A stretch of DNA of 64,000 nucleotides from assembly GCA_030390025.1 (NCBI GenBank), contig CM059431.1:109680001-109744000 (forward strand), written 5' to 3'. Shown here one piece after another: positions 9,246 through 59,060 of this stretch (its first letter is position 1; every line of letters begins with the position of its first letter). Source of the DNA: Squalus acanthias. Taxonomy: Eukaryota. Made by a program: the position numbers and the translations under genes. Under the pieces are notes generated by a model that was not told the origin of the DNA, ran no database searches, and saw only the letters and a list, made by a program, of their open reading frames with translations.

Positions 9246-10418
9246 AAAATCTAGGCTGACACTCCAGTGCAGTACTGAGGGAGTGCTGTGTGGTTGGAGC
9301 TGCGTCTTCCAATGAGATGTTAAACCAAAGTTCTTTCTGACTGTTCAAGTGGACATTAAGGGGGAAAAATTCAGTTGCTTTGCGCCTCCCGTTAGCGATG
9401 GCGCTAAACAATACCGCCACGATCTCCTGTGCCCGCAGATCGTGACGTCAGTCAAGCGTGCAATGCCCTGGTAGCGCCCCAGACCGGATATTGAGTGGTG
9501 CCCCCTACCTTTCTGCCTGCCGCTAACAATGACAGGTTGAGGGGAACGTTTTGCAGTCGGGAAGGGACTGGGGGAGCGCTATTTAAAGGCGGCCACTTCC
9601 TGCCTTTTTTTGTCGGCAACATTTTTGCACCACGCATTCTGAGAGAGAGAGACTTCTGGAGAGATTCAATGCTGTGTGAAGGAGTTTTGGGTACTGAGCA
9701 GCACTTTGCAGGTTCATTTTGATTTGACCTTCCTTGCATCGATTTAGAAGAGACTGTGGGGGCTGCACTCTGAGCTCTTTCCCTGGGCCTCTCCATTGTT
9801 CTTTCCAGCAGATTTGATGTACAGGTCTCTCCAGGCTGAGATTCAAGGCTGCAATGAGTAGGATGTGGATGGAAAGCAAGATCGACCCTCCCCTTTAAGA
9901 ACTGGCCGGCGCCAATGTGCCTGTGTTCCATTGCTAACTGACATCTCATGAGCTTCGCCAACGCTCTGAGGTAGCGCCTCGCTCCTCGGCGTTAGCGCCT
10001 TAAGAGAGGTGTATAGCACCTGATTTAGCGCTCCAATCACCTCCAGGGGCGATAGAAGCCAAGTTTGCAGTCGGAAGGCGATAATTAACGGCAGGCTCTA
10101 AACTTTGCGCCCGACCGATAATTGCGCCCCTGATGGGGCGATACCGAATTTCTCCCCCTAAAGGTCGTAAAGCACTATTTCAAAGAAGAGCCTGACGTTC
10201 TCCCAGTGACCTTGAAAACATTTTTCCCTCAACCACTACAAAAAAACATTAATTTCATTGCTGTTTGTGGCAGGTTGCTGTGCACCAAACGGCTTTCTCA
10301 TTTACCACTGTAACAACAATGACTGCACTTAAAAGTAATTCATTGTACATGAAATGCTTTGAGATGTTTCTGAGAGGGATGATCAGGTGCCGTGTTAATG
10401 CAAGTCTTTCTTTCTTTA
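9246..10418 (+). mobile_element. Deu-SINE copy split by a Harbinger-type MITE
   Basis: SINE body 9246-9359 (aaatctaggctgacactccagtgcagtactgagggag...gtggacat) resumes at 10162 (gcactatttcaaagaagag...aatgcaagtctttctttc). Confidence 0.8.
9360..10158. mobile_element. PIF/Harbinger-type non-autonomous element (MITE); same family as 39332-40098
   Basis: TIRs gggggaaaaattc / gaatttctccccc, 3-bp TAA TSD (9357-9359, 10159-10161), subterminal ttagcgc/gcgctaa repeats. Confidence 0.85.
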
Positions 10419-15702: not shown

Positions 15703-15812
15703 ATTGTGAGAAGTCGCACAACACCAGGTTATAGTCCAGGTTTGGACTATAACCTGGTGTTGTGCGACTTCTCACATTGGTCCACCCCAGTCCAACACCG
15801 GCATCTCCACAT
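15703..15812 (+). mobile_element. Miniature fold-back PLE family A insertion (34-bp perfect hairpin plus 36-nt tail)
   Basis: 15705-15738 is the exact reverse complement of 15743-15776 (loop ggtt). The tail gtccaccccagtccaacaccggcatctcc matches the tail at 52832-52871. 13-bp TSD caagatttagatt (15690-15702, 15813-15825). Confidence 0.92.
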
Positions 15813-16558
15813 CAAGATTTAGATTGGGAGGGAAATAAAAATACAGTTATCGGAAGTGAGACTCAATTTTTATTTTTGTTCAGAGCAATGCCAAGGGAAA
15901 TCAGCTAGTGCCTTATTTAAAACTTTAACAGCTTGCATATGTTTCCATTAGAAATGTTTTGAAGACACCAATGCATAAAGCCTACATTTTGCTAAGACAT
16001 TTGTTGATAAAATTCTGCCAAAATAATTGATGGATTTTGTATTCATTGGATGAGTTAGGTAAATTGAATTTGTGTTTCCTATATGAAGGATATAAATGGA
16101 AAGCATTCCATTATTGTTTTGGAATTAAAAGCAATATTGTTGCATGAAGGTCATGTCTGTTTAAGTGTTTACCTCTGCTGATAAGCACAATTAAATTTGT
16201 TACTGCGCTATTGTTCTCATCTTGATGACTTGTTCTACTCAGGGATATATCAAGTAAATGGAAGAAAGACAGGAACAGGAAAGTATCATTGATAACAAGG
16301 CATTTTATGTGGAAATGCCCTTGAGGCTTGAATCCAAACCAACTACACAAAAAAAAAACGAATACAGAGATATCTGCTGCAGCAAGAACAAAAGATTGTG
16401 GGCTTTTAATGTTCAAAGGTTAGTTCGCACAACCATTAGTGATAAACACTAACTAAAACTCAGTGCTAATTAAAGCTCAGGATCAGATTTCTAACACAGC
16501 GGTGTTAACTTCAGACTAATCACGACCAACAAAGACCTCGGAATCTGTGAATGCTGAC

Positions 16559-17205
16559 CGTTGCAGGAAAGGATGCCCCGGAGCATGGTACATCGGCGAG
16601 ACCATGCAGACACTGAGACAACGTATGAACGGACACCGCGCAACAATCGCCAGGCAGGATTGTTACCTCCCAGTCGGGGAACACTTCAGCAGTCAAGGAC
16701 ATTCAGCCTCGGATCTGCGGGTTAGCGTTCTCCAAGGCGGCCTTCGAGACACTCGACAATGCAAAATCATCGAGCAGAAACTGATAGCCAAGTTCCGCAC
16801 CCATGAGGACGGTCTCAATAGGGATCTCGGGTTCATGTCACGCTACAGAACGTGACTTGACATCGTTGTCTGTCTTTCCAGTTTTAAAAAAAAACACAAA
16901 AAAAAACAACCAAAAAAAAAACAACCAAAAAAAAAGTTAAAAGCTCAACTGCAGACGGCAACATTTGACACATTGGACCCACTATGATCCACCTCATTGT
17001 CTTAGCTGTACTCTGAGGTGTCTTTGATGTAATGCCTTCCTAACAGATTGTATCTCTGCAGACAAATTGCTCTCTGTGTATATGTACTGTGTAATCGATT
17101 TGTATTCCCTCACTGTACCTGGACCTGAAGAAGGAGCAGCGCTCCGAAAGCTCGTAATTTTAAATAAAACTGTTGGACTATAACCTGGTCTTGTGCGACT
17201 TCTCA
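16559..17205 (+). mobile_element. PLE family A 3' fragment (GIY-YIG C-terminal half plus pLTR)
   Basis: RCRKGCPGAWYIGETMQTLRQRMNGH...EQKLIAKFRTHEDGLNRDLGFMSRY is nearly identical to the end of ORF 55227-57152. Ends with aataaaactgttggactataacctgg...gcgacttctca and has no tail. Confidence 0.92.
17123..17155 (+). ncRNA. Minimal type I hammerhead ribozyme motif (PLE pLTR)
   Basis: ac-CTGAAGA-a-ggagc(agc)gctcc-GAAA-gctc-gt: core boxes, perfect 5-bp stem II, short palindromic stem III, weak stem I. Confidence 0.7.
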
Positions 17206-52188: not shown

Positions 52189-52679
52189 GACCCTGAAATT
52201 GGGGTCGGAGGCTTCCCGCGGGCGAATGCCTCCGATCCGCAAGAAAAGTACCTACCTGCTGCACATAGCACCGCGAACTTCAGTAGTAGCACCTCAAGAG
52301 GGAGGGGGAGCGCTTTCAGTAGCGCCCCGCCTCCTGCTTGGGACGCTACTACTGAATATACGGCGGAGGGGTGCTAACTTTTTCGGGGCGCTAAAAGGGG
52401 CACCACCCAATTTTTCCCCCTTAAGCTGGTAAAAGCAGGCCCTACGACTGCTTTTACCAGGCGTAAGAGTTTTGTGGGCATTCGCTGGGCAGTAGTTGGG
52501 CAAATAGCCCAACTCTGCGCTAACGAATGTTCATTTCTTGCGGATTTGTACGGTCTGTCGAGCTGAAACTTGACAGATCGCAAGTTCCGGGTTTTCGCGC
52601 ATGCACAGCGCACACGGTAACCCGGAACTTGTGGGGCACTTACGGCCGCATATGCTGTGCGTACGCGGTCATAGGCCCC
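52189..52679. mobile_element. CpG-rich MITE-like element
   Basis: GC/CpG-rich block with gcgcta repeats as in the other MITEs. Termini are approximate (gaccctgaaattgggg ... ataggcccc). Confidence 0.45.
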
Positions 52680-52921
52680 ATAAAAACCGTGCCATTAATT
52701 CCTTTTCTATATACAGATTAAGTTAATTGGTAGCTCCTATGTATGAAAATGAATCTTGTGATTTAAGATGACCCTGTAGACTGCATCTTGTGAAAGTGGC
52801 ATTATGTGACATCACTGACATAATGAATGTTCATGATGCGGAGATGCCGGTGTTGGACTGGGGTGGACAAAATTGAGAGGTCGCACAACACCAGGTTATA
52901 GTCCAACAGTTTTATTTGAAA

Positions 52922-52959
52922 TCACAAGCTTTCGGAACTATCGCTCCTTCCTCAGGTGA
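52922..52959 (-). ncRNA. Minimal type I hammerhead ribozyme (left-arm pLTR)
   Basis: Exact reverse complement of 57487-57524. Confidence 0.8.
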
Positions 52960-53293
52960 AGTAAATTGGATACAGAATCGTCAGAGCATATATAGATGGA
53001 AAAAAAAGCATGTGTACTTTACAATTGCAGACCAATAAATTAAATCATCCTGACTATCTGCCGAGGTGTGATAAAGTTAATTAAGTCAGCCAGGAAGGTA
53101 CCACATCAAAAGACATAGCAAGATACAACTGAGACAATGAGGTGAAGTCGCAGGGGTTCTAACGTGTCAAAAGCTGCCGTCTGTATGTAAAACGAAAAGC
53201 TTTAAAAAAAAATTTACTTTTTTACTGGGAAAATTTTTACTTTTTTACTGGGAATCACATCTGTGAACAAGCTAACGACGACTCGAGTCCGGA

Positions 53294-55429
53294 TCACGTC
53301 ATGTATCGTGACATAAACCCAAGATCCCGATTGAGACCGTCTTCATGAGTGCAGAACTTGGCTATCAGTTTCTGCTCGATGATTTTGCGTTGTCGTGTGT
53401 TTCTAAGGTTGCCTTGGAGAACGCTTACCCGCAGATCCGAGGCTGAATGTCCTTGACTGCTGAAGTGTTCCCCGACTGGGAGGTAACAATCCTGCCTGGC
53501 GATTGTTGCGCGGTGCTCGTTCATACGTTGTCTCAGTGTCTGCATGGTCTCGCCGATGTACCATGCCGCGGTGCATTCTTTCCTGCAACGTATGAGGTAG
53601 ACAACGTTGGCCGAGTCACATGAGTATGTACCATGTACCTGGTGGGTAGTGTCCTCACGTGTGATGGTGGTATCTGTGTTGATGATCTGGCATGTCTTGC
53701 AGAGTTTGCCATGGCAGGGTTGTGTGGTGTCGTGGTCGCTGTTATCCTGAAAGCTGGGTAATTTGCTGCGAACGATGGTACTTCTGAGGTTAGGCGGCTG
53801 TTTGAAGGCAAGTAGTGGAGGCGTGGGGATGGCCTTAGCGAGGTGTTTGTCGTCATCGATGACATGTTGAAGGCTGCGAAGAACATGTCGTAGTTTCTCC
53901 GCTCCGGGGAAGTACTGGACGACGTAGGGTACCCTGTTGGTTGTGTCCCGTGTTTGCCTTCTGAGGAGGTCTATGCGATTTTTCGCTGTGGCCCGTCGGA
54001 ACTGTCGATCGATGAGTCGAGCGTCATATCCCGTTCTTACGAGGGCGTTTTTCAGCGTCCGTAGGTGTCCATCGCGTTCCTCCTCGTCTGAGCAGATCCT
54101 GTGTATTCGCAGGGCTTGTCCATAGGGGATGGCTTCTTTAACATGGTTAGGGTGGAAGCTGGAGAAGTGGAGCATCGTGAGGTTGTCCGTGGGCTTGCGG
54201 TAGAGTGAAGTGCTGAGGTGTCCGTCTTTGATGGAGATTCGTGTGTCCAGGAATGAGACCGATTCTGAGGAGTAGTCCATGGTGAGTTTGATGGTGGGAT
54301 GGAACTTGTTTATGTTATCGTGTAGTCTTTTCAGTGATCCTTCGCCATGGGTCCAAAGGAAGAAAATGTCGTCGATGTATCTGGTGTACAGCGTTGGCTG
54401 GAGGTCCTGTGCAGCGAAGAAGTCTTGCTCGAACTTGTGCATGAAGATGTTGGCGTATTGGGGTGCGAATTTGGTCCCCATGGCTGTTCCGTGTGTTTGG
54501 GTAAAAAAATGGTTGTCGAAGGTGAAGACATTGTGGTCAAGGATGAAGCGGATGAGTTGTAGGATGGCGTCTGGAGATTGGCTGTTGTTGATGTTGAGTA
54601 CTGAGGCTGTTGCAGCGATGCCGTCATCGTGGGGGATACTGGTGTAGAGTGCCGATACGTCCATCGTGGCAAGGAGTGTTCCTGGTTCAACTGGTCCGTG
54701 GGTGCTGAGTTTCTGTAAGAAGTCTGTAGTGTCGCGACAGAAGCTGGGGGTTCCCTGTACGATGGGTTTCAGAATGCCCTCGACGTATCCAGAGAGGTTC
54801 TCACACAGGGTTCCATTGCCTGATACGATAGGACGTCCGGGTGTGTTGGCTTTGTGTATCTTTGGGAGGCAGTAGAAGTCTCCCACGCGGGGAGTACGTG
54901 GGATGAGAGCGCGTAGGATGTTTTGAAGGTCTGGATCGAAGGTCTTGATCAGTCTATTGAGTTGGCGGGTGTGTTCTTTGGTCGGATCTGCGGGTAGCTG
55001 TCTGTAGTGTTCCTGGTTGTCCAGTTGTCGGTATGCTTCTTTACAATAGTCCGTTCTGTTCTGTATGACGATGGCTCCTCCTTTGTCCGCTGGTTTGATG
55101 ACAATGTTGCGGTTGGTCTTGAGAGCGTGGATGGCGTTGCGTTGTGCTCGGGTGACATTCTGGACTGTCTTGTGAGTGCGGCTGATGAATCTGGCGTTGA
55201 TGCATTTCCTGACAGCTTGAGCATACATGTCAAGCTTGGGGCAGCGACCCTCCGGAGGGGTCCAGTTTGACTCTTTTTTCTTCGGTTGCTGCACTGCGAG
55301 TCCCTCTGTCTGCTGTTCTGGATCATTGATTGTCTCATTGGGTTTGTTGCTGACATCTTGGGATTTGTGGAAGTATTCCCGGAGCCTCATTCTCCTGATG
55401 AATTCCTCCGTGTCTGGACAACTGGACAA
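53294..55429 (-). CDS. PLE reverse transcriptase + GIY-YIG endonuclease, uninterrupted but 5'-truncated (element-derived from 55416; first in-frame ATG at 55390 gives 698 aa)
   Basis: IKPADKGG, FYCLPKIHK, PGRPIVS, MDVSALYTSIP, GTAMG..FAP.YANIFM, RYIDDIF; CxxxxCxxC linker (PCHGKLCKTC); NVVYLIRC...WYIGET, R..EH, EQKLI, GLN. Confidence 0.93.
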   Translation of the reverse strand: MSSCPDTEEFIRRMRLREYFHKSQDVSNKPNETINDPEQQTEGLAVQQPKKKESNWTPPEGRCPKLDMYAQAVRKCINARFISRTHKTVQNVTRAQRNAIHALKTNRNIVIKPADKGGAIVIQNRTDYCKEAYRQLDNQEHYRQLPADPTKEHTRQLNRLIKTFDPDLQNILRALIPRTPRVGDFYCLPKIHKANTPGRPIVSGNGTLCENLSGYVEGILKPIVQGTPSFCRDTTDFLQKLSTHGPVEPGTLLATMDVSALYTSIPHDDGIAATASVLNINNSQSPDAILQLIRFILDHNVFTFDNHFFTQTHGTAMGTKFAPQYANIFMHKFEQDFFAAQDLQPTLYTRYIDDIFFLWTHGEGSLKRLHDNINKFHPTIKLTMDYSSESVSFLDTRISIKDGHLSTSLYRKPTDNLTMLHFSSFHPNHVKEAIPYGQALRIHRICSDEEERDGHLRTLKNALVRTGYDARLIDRQFRRATAKNRIDLLRRQTRDTTNRVPYVVQYFPGAEKLRHVLRSLQHVIDDDKHLAKAIPTPPLLAFKQPPNLRSTIVRSKLPSFQDNSDHDTTQPCHGKLCKTCQIINTDTTITREDTTHQVHGTYSCDSANVVYLIRCRKECTAAWYIGETMQTLRQRMNEHRATIARQDCYLPVGEHFSSQGHSASDLRVSVLQGNLRNTRQRKIIEQKLIAKFCTHEDGLNRDLGFMSRYMT

Positions 55430-57152
55430 CCAGGAACACTACAGACAGCTACCCGCAGATCCGACCAAAGAACACACCCGCCAACTCAATAGACTGATCA
55501 AGACCTTCGATCCAGACCTTCAAAACATCCTACGCGCTCTCATCCCACGTACTCCCCGCGTGGGAGACTTCTACTGCCTCCCAAAGATACACAAAGCCAA
55601 CACACCCGGACGTCCTATCGTATCAGGCAATGGAACCCTGTGTGAGAACCTCTCTGGATACGTCGAGGGCATTCTGAAACCCATCGTACAGGGAACCCCC
55701 AGCTTCTGTCGCGACACTACAGACTTCTTACAGAAACTCAGCACCCACGGACCAGTTGAACCAGGAACACTCCTTGCCACGATGGACGTATCGGCACTCT
55801 ACACCAGTATCCCCCACGATGACGGCATCGCTGCAACAGCCTCAGTACTCAACATCAACAACAGCCAATCTCCAGACGCCATCCTACAACTCATCCGCTT
55901 CATCCTTGACCACAATGTCTTCACCTTCGACAACCATTTTTTTACCCAAACACACGGAACAGCCATGGGGACCAAATTCGCACCCCAATACGCCAACATC
56001 TTCATGCACAAGTTCGAGCAAGACTTCTTCGCTGCACAGGACCTCCAGCCAACGCTGTACACCAGATACATCGACGACATTTTCTTCCTTTGGACCCATG
56101 GCGAAGGATCACTGAAAAGACTACACGATAACATAAACAAGTTCCATCCCACCATCAAACTCACCATGGACTACTCCTCAGAATCGGTCTCATTCCTGGA
56201 CACACGAATCTCCATCAAAGACGGACACCTCAGCACTTCACTCTACCGCAAGCCCACGGACAACCTCACGATGCTCCACTTCTCCAGCTTCCACCCTAAC
56301 CATGTTAAAGAAGCCATCCCCTATGGACAAGCCCTGCGAATACACAGGATCTGCTCAGACGAGGAGGAACGCGATGGACACCTACGGACGCTGAAAAACG
56401 CCCTCGTAAGAACGGGATATGACGCTCGACTCATCGATCGACAGTTCCGACGGGCCACAGCGAAAAATCGCATAGACCTCCTCAGAAGGCAAACACGGGA
56501 CACAACCAACAGGGTACCCTACGTCGTCCAGTACTTCCCCGGAGCGGAGAAACTACGACATGTTCTTCGCAGCCTTCAACATGTCATCGATGACGACAAA
56601 CACCTCGCTAAGGCCATCCCCACGCCTCCACTACTTGCCTTCAAACAGCCGCCTAACCTCAGAAGTACCATCGTTCGCAGCAAATTACCCAGCTTTCAGG
56701 ATAACAGCGACCACGACACCACACAACCCTGCCATGGCAAACTCTGCAAGACATGCCAGATCATCAACACAGATACCACCATCACACGTGAGGACACTAC
56801 CCACCAGGTACATGGTACATACTCATGTGACTCGGCCAACGTTGTCTACCTCATACGTTGCAGGAAAGAATGCACCGCGGCATGGTACATCGGCGAGACC
56901 ATGCAGACACTGAGACAACGTATGAACGAGCACCGCGCAACAATCGCCAGGCAGGATTGTTACCTCCCAGTCGGGGAACACTTCAGCAGTCAAGGACATT
57001 CAGCCTCGGATCTGCGGGTAAGCGTTCTCCAAGGCAACCTTAGAAACACACGACAACGCAAAATCATCGAGCAGAAACTGATAGCCAAGTTCTGCACTCA
57101 TGAAGACGGTCTCAATCGGGATCTTGGGTTTATGTCACGATACATGACGTGA
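55227..57152 (+). CDS. Second, more truncated PLE RT + GIY-YIG frame (PLE-derived from 55417); its first ~63 codons are antisense spacer read in frame
   Basis: From QLDNQEHY to the stop it is identical to the minus-strand ORF. It lacks the DKG motif region. Confidence 0.8.
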   Translation: MSSLGQRPSGGVQFDSFFFGCCTASPSVCCSGSLIVSLGLLLTSWDLWKYSRSLILLMNSSVSGQLDNQEHYRQLPADPTKEHTRQLNRLIKTFDPDLQNILRALIPRTPRVGDFYCLPKIHKANTPGRPIVSGNGTLCENLSGYVEGILKPIVQGTPSFCRDTTDFLQKLSTHGPVEPGTLLATMDVSALYTSIPHDDGIAATASVLNINNSQSPDAILQLIRFILDHNVFTFDNHFFTQTHGTAMGTKFAPQYANIFMHKFEQDFFAAQDLQPTLYTRYIDDIFFLWTHGEGSLKRLHDNINKFHPTIKLTMDYSSESVSFLDTRISIKDGHLSTSLYRKPTDNLTMLHFSSFHPNHVKEAIPYGQALRIHRICSDEEERDGHLRTLKNALVRTGYDARLIDRQFRRATAKNRIDLLRRQTRDTTNRVPYVVQYFPGAEKLRHVLRSLQHVIDDDKHLAKAIPTPPLLAFKQPPNLRSTIVRSKLPSFQDNSDHDTTQPCHGKLCKTCQIINTDTTITREDTTHQVHGTYSCDSANVVYLIRCRKECTAAWYIGETMQTLRQRMNEHRATIARQDCYLPVGEHFSSQGHSASDLRVSVLQGNLRNTRQRKIIEQKLIAKFCTHEDGLNRDLGFMSRYMT

Positions 57153-57486
57153 TCCGGACTCGAGTCGTCGTTAGCTTGTTCACAGATGTGATTCCCAGTA
57201 AAAAAGTAAAAATTTTCCCAGTAAAAAAGTAAATTTTTTTTTAAAGCTTTTCGTTTTACATACAGACGGCAGCTTTTGACACGTTAGAACCCCTGCGACT
57301 TCACCTCATTGTCTCAGTTGTATCTTGCTATGTCTTTTGATGTGGTACCTTCCTGGCTGACTTAATTAACTTTATCACACCTCGGCAGATAGTCAGGATG
57401 ATTTAATTTATTGGTCTGCAATTGTAAAGTACACATGCTTTTTTTTCCATCTATATATGCTCTGACGATTCTGTATCCAATTTACT

Positions 57487-57524
57487 TCACCTGAGGAAGG
57501 AGCGATAGTTCCGAAAGCTTGTGA
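57487..57524 (+). ncRNA. Minimal type I hammerhead ribozyme (right-arm pLTR)
   Basis: Stem I tcac/gtga, CTGAGGA core, stem II ggagc(gata)gttcc, GAAA, palindromic AAGCTT stem III with predicted CUU cleavage triplet. AATAAA follows downstream. Confidence 0.8.
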
Positions 57525-57879
57525 TTTCAAATAAAACTGTTGGACTATAACCTGGTGTTGTGCGACCTCTCAATAATGAATGTTGCCATAGTTTTCATTC
57601 TTGGATTCCACTCAGAAGACATAATGAGGTTCTGAAGTATCAGCCAAGTTATACACACTCCCTCTCCACTAGACTGCAAGAGATTTGATGAATGCATACC
57701 TACCAATACCTCACGCCCGACTTGGCAACCAAGATTAGATGACGCATACCCACTAAGAGACTATGCAGCCCTTTCTCAACTGACACACCACCAGCAACAG
57801 ACAGCTGCCTCACTCCACAAGGCTACATACTCTCTTCTCTACTAACTTAATACGGAATGGGCAGATATTTGGAGAGTTA

Positions 57880-59060
57880 GTAATGAAACGGTCATTAAAA
57901 AGTCTTTGAATATTCTTAAAGCATCAGGACCAGATGGAATGCATCCAAGAGTACTGAAGCAAATGAGGGCAGAATAAGAGGAGTTGTAACAGAAATGCTT
58001 CACTGCTCATTGAGCACAGAGGTGATAGTCAAAAGAACTGTCATTCCAATTTTTACAAAAGGTTAGAAGCAGCGATCTGGGGAACTATAAGCCCTAGGTG
58101 TCAGCCATGGCTCAGTGGGTAGCAACCTCGCCTCTGAGTCAGAAGGTTGTGGGTTCAAAGTCCCACTCCAGGGACTTGAGCACAAAAATTCTAGGCTGAC
58201 ACTCCAGTGCAGCACTGAGGGAGCACTGCACTGTCGGAGGTGCCGTCTTTCAAATGAGATGATAAACCGAGGCCCTGTCTGCTCTCTCAGGTGGACGTAA
58301 AAGATCCCACGGCACTATTTCAAAAAAGAGCAGGGAAAGTTATCCCCGGTGTCCTGGGGTCAATATTTATCCCTCAATCAACATCACGAAAACAGATTAT
58401 CTGGTCATTATCACATTGCTGTTTGTGGGAGCTTGCTGTGCACAAGTTGGCTGCCGGGTTTCCTACATTACAACAGTGACTACACTTCAAAAAGTACTTC
58501 ATTGGCTGTAAAGCACTTTGGGACATCCAGTGGTCGTGAAAGGCGCTATATAAATGCAAATCTTTCTTTTTCTTTAACTTGACATCTGTAGCGGGACAAA
58601 ATATTGGTTCCTATTATAAAAGGAAGCCTGTTTAACAAAAATAAAGACGATGTGAGCTTGAGAACCAGGGCATGAAAAATGTATTGGAATTTTTTGATAC
58701 TGTAAATAAATTGGTTAAATATTCAATGTTATATAACTTGATCTCTAAAAAGCATTTGGTAATATCCAGCACAAAATTTCAATTGGGCAGATATTTGGAA
58801 ACAATGGGGAGGGGATCAGTGGTAAGCGTGCTAATCGGACAGCTGTGACCAGTCCCATGAATTCGTTCTGTGACTAATGTTACTGAAAGTAGAACGCTTA
58901 AGGTTTCAGATGATGTCAAGTTATGCGGGACAACAGAACTTCAGAGAAGGATAAAACTGAAAGAGATCTGCACAGACTTAGCAACTGGACAGATGAATGG
59001 TAAATGTTATTTAATATCGAGGAATGTAAGTTCATGCGCCTTGGTACAAAAAATAGCAAA
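57880..59060 (+). mobile_element. Old, highly decayed CR1 ORF2 remnant containing a SINE insertion
   Basis: KASGPDGMHPRVLKQ, IPIFTKG...GNYKP|SINE|LTSV, DDVKL and downstream RT-like remnants with many stops. Confidence 0.7.
58097..58575 (+). mobile_element. Full-length Deu-SINE
   Basis: gtgtcagccatggctcagtgggtag (A box), gggttcaaagtccc (B box), Deu body, (cttt)n tail. Confidence 0.92.

Follow-up and report, generated by a model that had tools for sequence, protein, structure and literature searches.

A two-armed Penelope-like insertion within one target site duplication in Squalus acanthias, and its probable origin from two primers

A stretch of 64,000 nucleotides of Squalus acanthias DNA (GenBank assembly GCA_030390025.1, contig CM059431.1, positions 109,680,001 to 109,744,000 of the forward strand), which we call the window and to which all plain coordinates refer, carries at 52820-57584 an insertion made of two head-to-head copies of a Penelope-like element (PLE). 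A repeat search placed two inverted arms at 52872-55029 and 55417-57574, each 2,158 nt long, 100% complementary to each other and 387 nt apart, which is what an initial annotation of this DNA had described as two 2158-bp arms without an indel around a 387-bp spacer. The finer details that it had given held as well: a 23-nt tandem duplication is present in each arm (53207-53252 and 57192-57237), and the right arm does stop 40 nt short, the left copy extending further outward by 52832-52871. The insertion is flanked by a 12-bp target site duplication (TSD), ATAATGAATGTT, at 52820-52831 and 57573-57584. Since the terminal AT of the right arm (57573-57574) doubles as the first two bases of the TSD, the element-only portion of this arm may end at 57572, and the offset between the outer ends is then 40-42 nt.

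An open reading frame (ORF) of 714 aa on the minus strand, 53294-55438, runs from the left arm on through the 387 nt between the arms, so that this spacer belongs to the left copy and is not foreign DNA. The layout is that of a 2,585-nt minus-strand copy (52832-55416) which abuts, 5' end to 5' end, a plus-strand copy of 2,156-2,158 nt (55417-57574). When aligned to the 3,138-nt unit of the element, whose positions are prefixed here with u, the left copy spans u554-3138, the first 553 nt being absent, while the right copy is u941-3098, its final two bases overlapping the TSD. The spacer (55030-55416, minus strand) is u554-940 of the left copy and is missing from the shorter right copy, as the repeat search, the ORF and the unit alignment all indicate. 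At the junction of the two 5' ends, 55416/55417, both sides were compared with the unit sequence and the joint was found to be blunt, with neither filler nor shared bases. The outermost 40 nt of the left copy (52832-52871, minus strand; u3099-3138), delimited by comparison with tandem copies, form a tail. We refer to the tail-bearing end as T and to the tail-less end of the right copy as N.

The ORF of the left copy matched PF00078 RVT_1 with 35.5 bits and an E value of 1.1e-08 (cut-off 29.6) over the reverse-transcriptase core at 54302-54694 on the minus strand, which is mirrored at 55752-56144 on the plus strand. The GIY-YIG endonuclease motif region at 53501-53605 on the minus strand, mirrored at 56841-56945 on the plus strand, gave a weak match to PF01541 (21.2 bits, E value 0.00035), just under the cut-off of 22.6 bits, and the motifs VVYLIRC...WYIGET are visible in the translation of the 714-aa frame. 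These matches, of which that to RVT_1 is above its cut-off and that to GIY-YIG below it, bear out the earlier assignment to the PLEs. Tandem copies of the family (L013 and L014) define a unit of 3,138 bp, that is, the 2,585 nt present at this locus plus 553 nt of 5' sequence, and the left copy is 99.7% identical to the natural full unit at L013. At L002, L005, L006, L009, L012, L013, L014, L018 and L030, u2192-3138 precedes u1-3138, the period being 3,138 bp, and these are partial tandems with a pseudo-long terminal repeat (pLTR). In the tandem copies the tail, which closes with CATCATG, runs straight into ACCACT, and that ATG is the first methionine codon of the 892-aa full-length ORF. The tail is rich in A and C (25 of its 40 bases) and, when read on the element strand, ends in this ATG.

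Each copy also has a candidate minimal hammerhead-type motif, at 57486-57524 on the plus strand in the right copy and, as its mirror, at 52922-52960 on the minus strand in the left copy. By hand it reads TTCAC-CTGAGGA-A-GGAGC-GATA-GTTCC-GAA-AGCT-T/GTGA, of minimal type I, with the predicted cut (slash) after 57520 (u3044), from where it is 52-54 nt to the N end and 94 nt to the T end. In this hand comparison the sequence agrees with the traits that PMC4209133 gives for minimal hammerhead ribozymes, namely, an extra base between A9 and 10.1, G10.1-C11.1, and palindromic 15.2-16.2. Helix II has compensated changes between subfamilies (GGAGC/GCTCC versus GGAGTT/AACTCC). For this, helix II (u3023-3036) of L052, L061 and L063 was compared with that of L013 and of the window. 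Arm ends seemed to cluster at u3027, but this was rejected as an alignment break, which arises because the subfamilies differ in the loop of helix II. One older subfamily has C for U at core position 4 (CCGACGA), which is expected to inactivate the predicted hammerhead. Rfam gave no hammerhead match at E values up to 1 in 10 kb or up to 10 in 469 nt, so the motif is named by hand only. The predicted fold of the last 159 nt was no better than that of shuffled sequences (z -0.42), so that a local stem which would put the N site in a loop is a drawing only. A scan for bacterial promoters and terminators, irrelevant here, gave as many sites as shuffled sequences. Prediction of a two-copy complex of residues 1-150 of the full-length ORF scored 0.10 against a mark of 0.32, which is uninformative either way. 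Contigs of runs X7 and X9, which are from other organisms and cover no flank of the locus, contain stretches of the element at 95-100% likeness, and thus the family or close relatives are present beyond the species of the window.

The insertion is polymorphic in Squalus acanthias. Contigs from two public runs, X1 and X5, which are two samples of one organism, were compared with the window over 52300-58100. In X1 record 1 (747 nt) and X5 record 8 (715 nt), position 52819 is joined directly to 57573 and there is one copy of ATAATGAATGTT. This is the empty allele that the initial annotation had proposed to look for. Since it holds the 12-mer only once the TSD is no chance match, and since it joins 52819 to 57573 all of the intervening DNA arrived at one site. 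The right-flank contigs carry other letters than the window at 6 of 6 variable places in X1 and at 5 of 6 in X5, and because no right-flank contig has the window's letters, X1 and X5 show only the empty haplotype there. The proximal flanks have no second match in the 3.7-Gb assembly; the matches obtained are older repeats in the distal flanks. We conclude that the insertion is real and very young, and that it was dead on arrival, since the 5' part of the ORF is missing from both copies.

How usual is this two-armed form in the family? A 20-mer whose last base is at the N site has 19,328 occurrences in the 3.7-Gb genome, and its reversed control has 0. The word runs on into the tail at 9,413 of the 19,328 places, roughly one half, the share that equal numbers of T and N ends would give. 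The left copy has matches at 99.5-100% identity in many places (47 matches listed; 40 of 2,378 candidates scored). As an unbiased sample we took the first 100 N-site places in positional order, which lie in the first 13.6 Mb of contig C1. These gave 27 pairs in '-,+' order within 6 kb, that is, with their 3' ends outward, 1 tandem member and 45 singles, and no pair in '+,-' (tail-to-tail) order was found among the 100. Head-to-head pairs are thus 27 of about 73 insertion units in the sample. Of these pairs 26 were examined by sequence and the 27th by exact patterns. Arms in the family can be as short as 32 nt and as long as over 3 kb. The singles, scored by exact 20-mers, comprise about 15 T and about 30 N, counts that would overlook short partner arms and in which ends trimmed by 1-3 nt escape the tail-end 20-mer. 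The rarity that the initial annotation had implied is therefore not borne out, nor is the novelty, because the architecture with its one-sided tail has been published (PMC8557442 and PMC3846280). The locus is a clean example of the ordinary Penelope architecture, and no new kind of structure or event.

Within the window there is a second, tiny T/N pair at 15707-15814, with a minus arm of 32 nt (u3065-3096, N), a plus arm of 73 nt (u3064-3136, T) and nearly equal 5' end points. An older, fragmented 3' region of a related PLE lies on the plus strand at 16559-17205, is 79-93% identical to the unit and ends at the N site. At L049 (G000:C1:32800-35050) the tail-less arm has an internal deletion that joins u2111 to u2276, and the partner arm is 133 nt long.

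Arm lengths, tail offsets and arm-to-arm differences, whose tabulation over family copies had been suggested, were compiled for the sampled pairs. In all 26 pairs examined by sequence the end of one arm lies within u3134-3138 (T) and that of the other within u3097-3112 (N), and the 27th is T/N by exact patterns; if both sites were picked independently and equally, 27 discordant pairs out of 27 would have a chance of about 7e-9. A further 16 pairs among the best genome matches include 13 that are T/N. The unpaired outer end is 36-41 nt long in 14 of the 15 pairs that gave a self-alignment (32 were tried, the short palindromes being without a usable high-scoring segment pair). A TSD of at least 10 exact bases, most commonly of 12, brackets 22 of the 26 pairs, 3 more have one with a single mismatch and 1 is unclear. 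Together with the single copy in the empty allele, this sustains the claim that the whole structure at the window locus was made at one site within one TSD. The TSDs frequently begin with T or TT. The N ends usually have 1-4 bases in common with the start of the TSD, inside AATTTTG (AT at the window locus), which looks like primer annealing at the start site. Clean 12-bp TSDs also occur around single copies of both end types (L025, L028, L029, L005).

Independent insertions were found at identical 12-bp targets within other repeat families: L050, L051, L053, L022 and L029; L059, L064, L008 and L052; and L070 and L011 (targets, respectively, TTCTATGAGATA, TTCATAAATAGA / TTTATAAACAGA, TTACTACAGTTA). 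From this repeated use of the same targets, the endonuclease apparently favours particular AT-rich sites. At the same target and in the same orientation, the left arm carries T in L022 and L064, and in L053 and L059 the right arm does. Thus, the assignment of start site to strand is free, though each event has one of each.

The sequence differences between the arms bear on their template. At the window locus, where a check of arm-to-arm identity had been recommended, the arms have 0 differences over 2,156 shared positions, and 7 differences from the reference unit are common to both. The corresponding numbers of variants, shared by the arms and different between them, are 17 and 0 at L059, 10 and 0 at L065, and 25 and 7 at L058. 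The median between loci is 8 differences per 1,833 nt, as against 0-4 within pairs, a contrast that is conservative because the between-locus panel was picked by likeness to the window copy. Differences between arms are mostly private and several are at CpG. Position u2758, at the boundary of the A-run and the T-run in the 23-nt duplication (window ~53212 and ~57232), differs between the arms in three young pairs, L010, L017 and L019. Panel copies vary here (20 A, 44 T), the arms of the window pair agree, and the position may be a site of reverse-transcriptase slippage or of homopolymer assembly error. To judge from the variants that they have in common, both arms of a pair come from one template source.

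The most likely explanation, to which we would give a probability of roughly 0.6, is that one retrotransposition event of this young and very abundant PLE made both arms, each nick priming at one start site on one RNA or on RNAs from the same source, and that the products were then joined bluntly. At the window locus the T end is the outer start site of the family, which closes with the ATG of the ORF, and the N end is the inner start site, about 40 nt upstream. The endonuclease of the element would nick the two strands at points about 12 bp from each other, and the two 3'-OH ends would prime reverse transcription of the element RNA, the one at T and the other at N. The resulting cDNAs would halt at u554 and u941, their 3' ends would be joined bluntly, and each cDNA would then template completion of the opposite strand. 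Since each sampled pair has one T and one N, in either arrangement at the same target, the two initiations look coupled in one asymmetric complex. In its likeliest form one RNA, or two RNAs from the same source, would be copied twice; no RNase H domain having been detected, an RNA could serve as template a second time. The initial annotation had likewise argued that the same sequence was copied twice, and its logic is sound, since both arms cover the same sequence. From its overall reading the PLE, the single site and the two-primer origin emerge as best supported, and what falls away is the implied rarity and novelty; two-strand extension from two adjacent internal start sites was already known in vitro (PMC11167929).

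Some of the data weigh against this explanation. The mechanism is read from end points and not from priming events. The filled allele and the 55416/55417 junction are seen in the assembly only, all of the runs being contigs and not raw long reads, and the 45 single places of the sample are known from 20-mers and not from their structure. The 3 exceptions among the further pairs are L024, which is N/N and whose plus arm crosses a tandem junction, L007, which is T/T beside a run of N, and L021, which is complex. In-vitro data show no difference between the strands in the use of the start sites and do not predict coupling (PMC11167929). Finally, in L052, L068, L072 and the mini pair at 15707-15814 the 5' end points coincide and the centre is a near-perfect palindrome, as fold-back would also produce.

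A stricter version of the two-primer explanation is that every two-armed insertion uses each start site exactly once, whatever the orientation of the target. In this version one asymmetric ribonucleoprotein (RNP) would prime both nicks on one RNA, the first polymerase starting at the inner site and the second 40 nt behind it at the outer site, displacing the first cDNA. We regard this as possible and put it forward only tentatively. If it is true, an integration complex that always needs two polymerases would have left its mark in the one-sided tail, for which descriptions so far go no further than 'often at one end'.

Fold-back is the alternative that survives best, though we think it unlikely. 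A single target-primed cDNA would prime itself, its 3' end folding back 387 nt from the end and copying the cDNA, and trimming or joining at the tail boundary, for example by the element endonuclease, would follow. PMC3846280 proposes self-priming for PLE inverted repeats with palindromic junctions, and PMC8557442 contains a proposal that attributes the tail to endonuclease-mediated resolution. The near-identity of the arms within pairs is in line with this, as are the equal 5' end points and palindromic centres of L052, L068 and L072. Yet a fold-back copy can neither exceed the first arm nor gain a tail, and the longer arm, by more than 100 nt, is N in 5 of 26 pairs and T in 4 of 26 (at the window locus it is T, by 387 nt). 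Since either arm may be the longer one, simple fold-back, in which the tail-less arm is copied from the tailed arm, is excluded. Moreover, the tail-less end falls at the narrow site u3097-3112, as it does in the single copies with clean TSDs L025, L028 and L029, and this is expected of a start site. The window junction has no inverted microhomology for priming, and the centre of L072, at 1 nt, is too short for a hairpin loop.

Somewhat less probable still is that there were two primers and two separate RNAs, held together by a dimeric RNP or by an RNA dimer formed through a dimer-type hammerhead, each nick copying its own RNA. The anole PLE protein is predicted to form a dimer (PMC11167929), and minimal PLE hammerheads are thought to work as dimers (PMC4209133). 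A symmetric dimer with two RNAs should yield T/T and N/N pairs also, whereas the sampled pairs are T/N in 27 of 27. In the examined pairs, furthermore, no difference between arms falls at a subfamily-diagnostic position, u2758 being the sole recurrent difference.

That the structure is an assembly artefact (a long-read fold-back chimera), two independent insertions or a later inverted duplication is very improbable: the filled allele was unseen in X1 and X5 and perfect 2.2-kb inverted repeats of a high-copy family assemble poorly, but the bracketing TSD is single in the empty allele, the ends are the two specific end points of the family, the same layout recurs at 26 other loci on another contig, an artefact makes neither a TSD nor a 40-nt offset, and two separate insertions would leave two TSDs.

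The left flank of the insertion has two features of its own. At 52279-52356 there is an imperfect hairpin of 36 nt with 81% complementarity, whose miRNA-like Rfam match of 24.5 bits is sub-threshold (82 bits). Just downstream of it, at ~52410-52700, lies an old, separate repeat that has over 7,000 candidate copies.

For Penelope, both 5'-truncated copies in inverted orientation and a tail of 30-40 bp on one side are already published (PMC8557442, PMC3846280), and the latter paper reports the same architecture with TSDs. The family described here resembles the endonuclease-bearing (EN+) PLEs of those papers (Penelope/Poseidon/Neptune, and Pen2a_Av of Adineta vaga) in its pseudo-LTR tandems, in the inverted 5'-truncated copy at the 5' end, in the 30-40-bp tail at one end and in the TSD around the unit. 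It also resembles them in the start of the ORF inside the pLTR/tail, and would do so in the hammerhead-type motif of the pLTR if the hand-read candidate is one. There is no difference in kind. The window locus lacks a direct pLTR, both of its copies are 5'-truncated and its inverted part is long (2.2 kb), and the tail of the Squalus acanthias family ends exactly at the ATG. In the literature searched (for PMC11167929, the main text) we found no paper that ties two-strand priming explicitly to inverted copies or states a strict rule of one tail per event, and a term search of preprint 10.64898/2026.07.22.740005 met no discussion of inverted copies or tails.

L1 twin priming has in common with the two-primer explanation that both nicks of one target prime and that an inverted structure results within one TSD. 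In twin priming as Ostertag and Kazazian are said to have described it in 2001, the second primer reportedly anneals internally on the same RNA, and the resulting segments are adjacent and largely non-overlapping. Here, in contrast, the arms have 2,158 nt of sequence in common, and each begins at a defined 3' site. The initial annotation was right to set L1-type twin priming aside, as both arms span the same 2,158 nt.

The closest biochemical parallel is the purified PLE protein of the anole Anolis carolinensis (PAc, of Poseidon type), which cleaves and extends both strands, and whose reverse transcription begins at two adjacent internal sites separated by an interval that is the genomic tail (PMC11167929). 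The hammerhead is dispensable for PAc in vitro, and AlphaFold2 predicts a dimer (PMC11167929). PAc and the family described here are alike in their AT-rich targets, in the cutting and extension of both strands (proposed for the family here) and in the two internal start sites spaced by the tail, and the two-primer origin agrees with this published biochemistry (PMC11167929). They are alike also in that the start sites lie tens of nt downstream of the hammerhead cut, ~85-92 nt for the mapped stem-loop site in PAc and 52-54 and 94 nt from the predicted cut here. They differ in the start codon, which precedes the hammerhead cut site in PAc and is at the outer start site here (PMC11167929). The PLE steps past first-strand synthesis have not yet been worked out by experiment (PMC11167929), and the window locus is an unusually clean natural product: its arms are still identical, its junction is blunt, its TSD has 12 bp and the empty allele persists in the population. 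Being polymorphic, the locus is also useful as a marker in Squalus acanthias. The limits that the family sets on any model are one tail per pair (27 of 27), either arm longer, either arrangement at the same target and one template source. PAc showed no strand preference in vitro, where the use of both sites in one event was not addressed (PMC11167929), whereas the sampled pairs described here have one of each.

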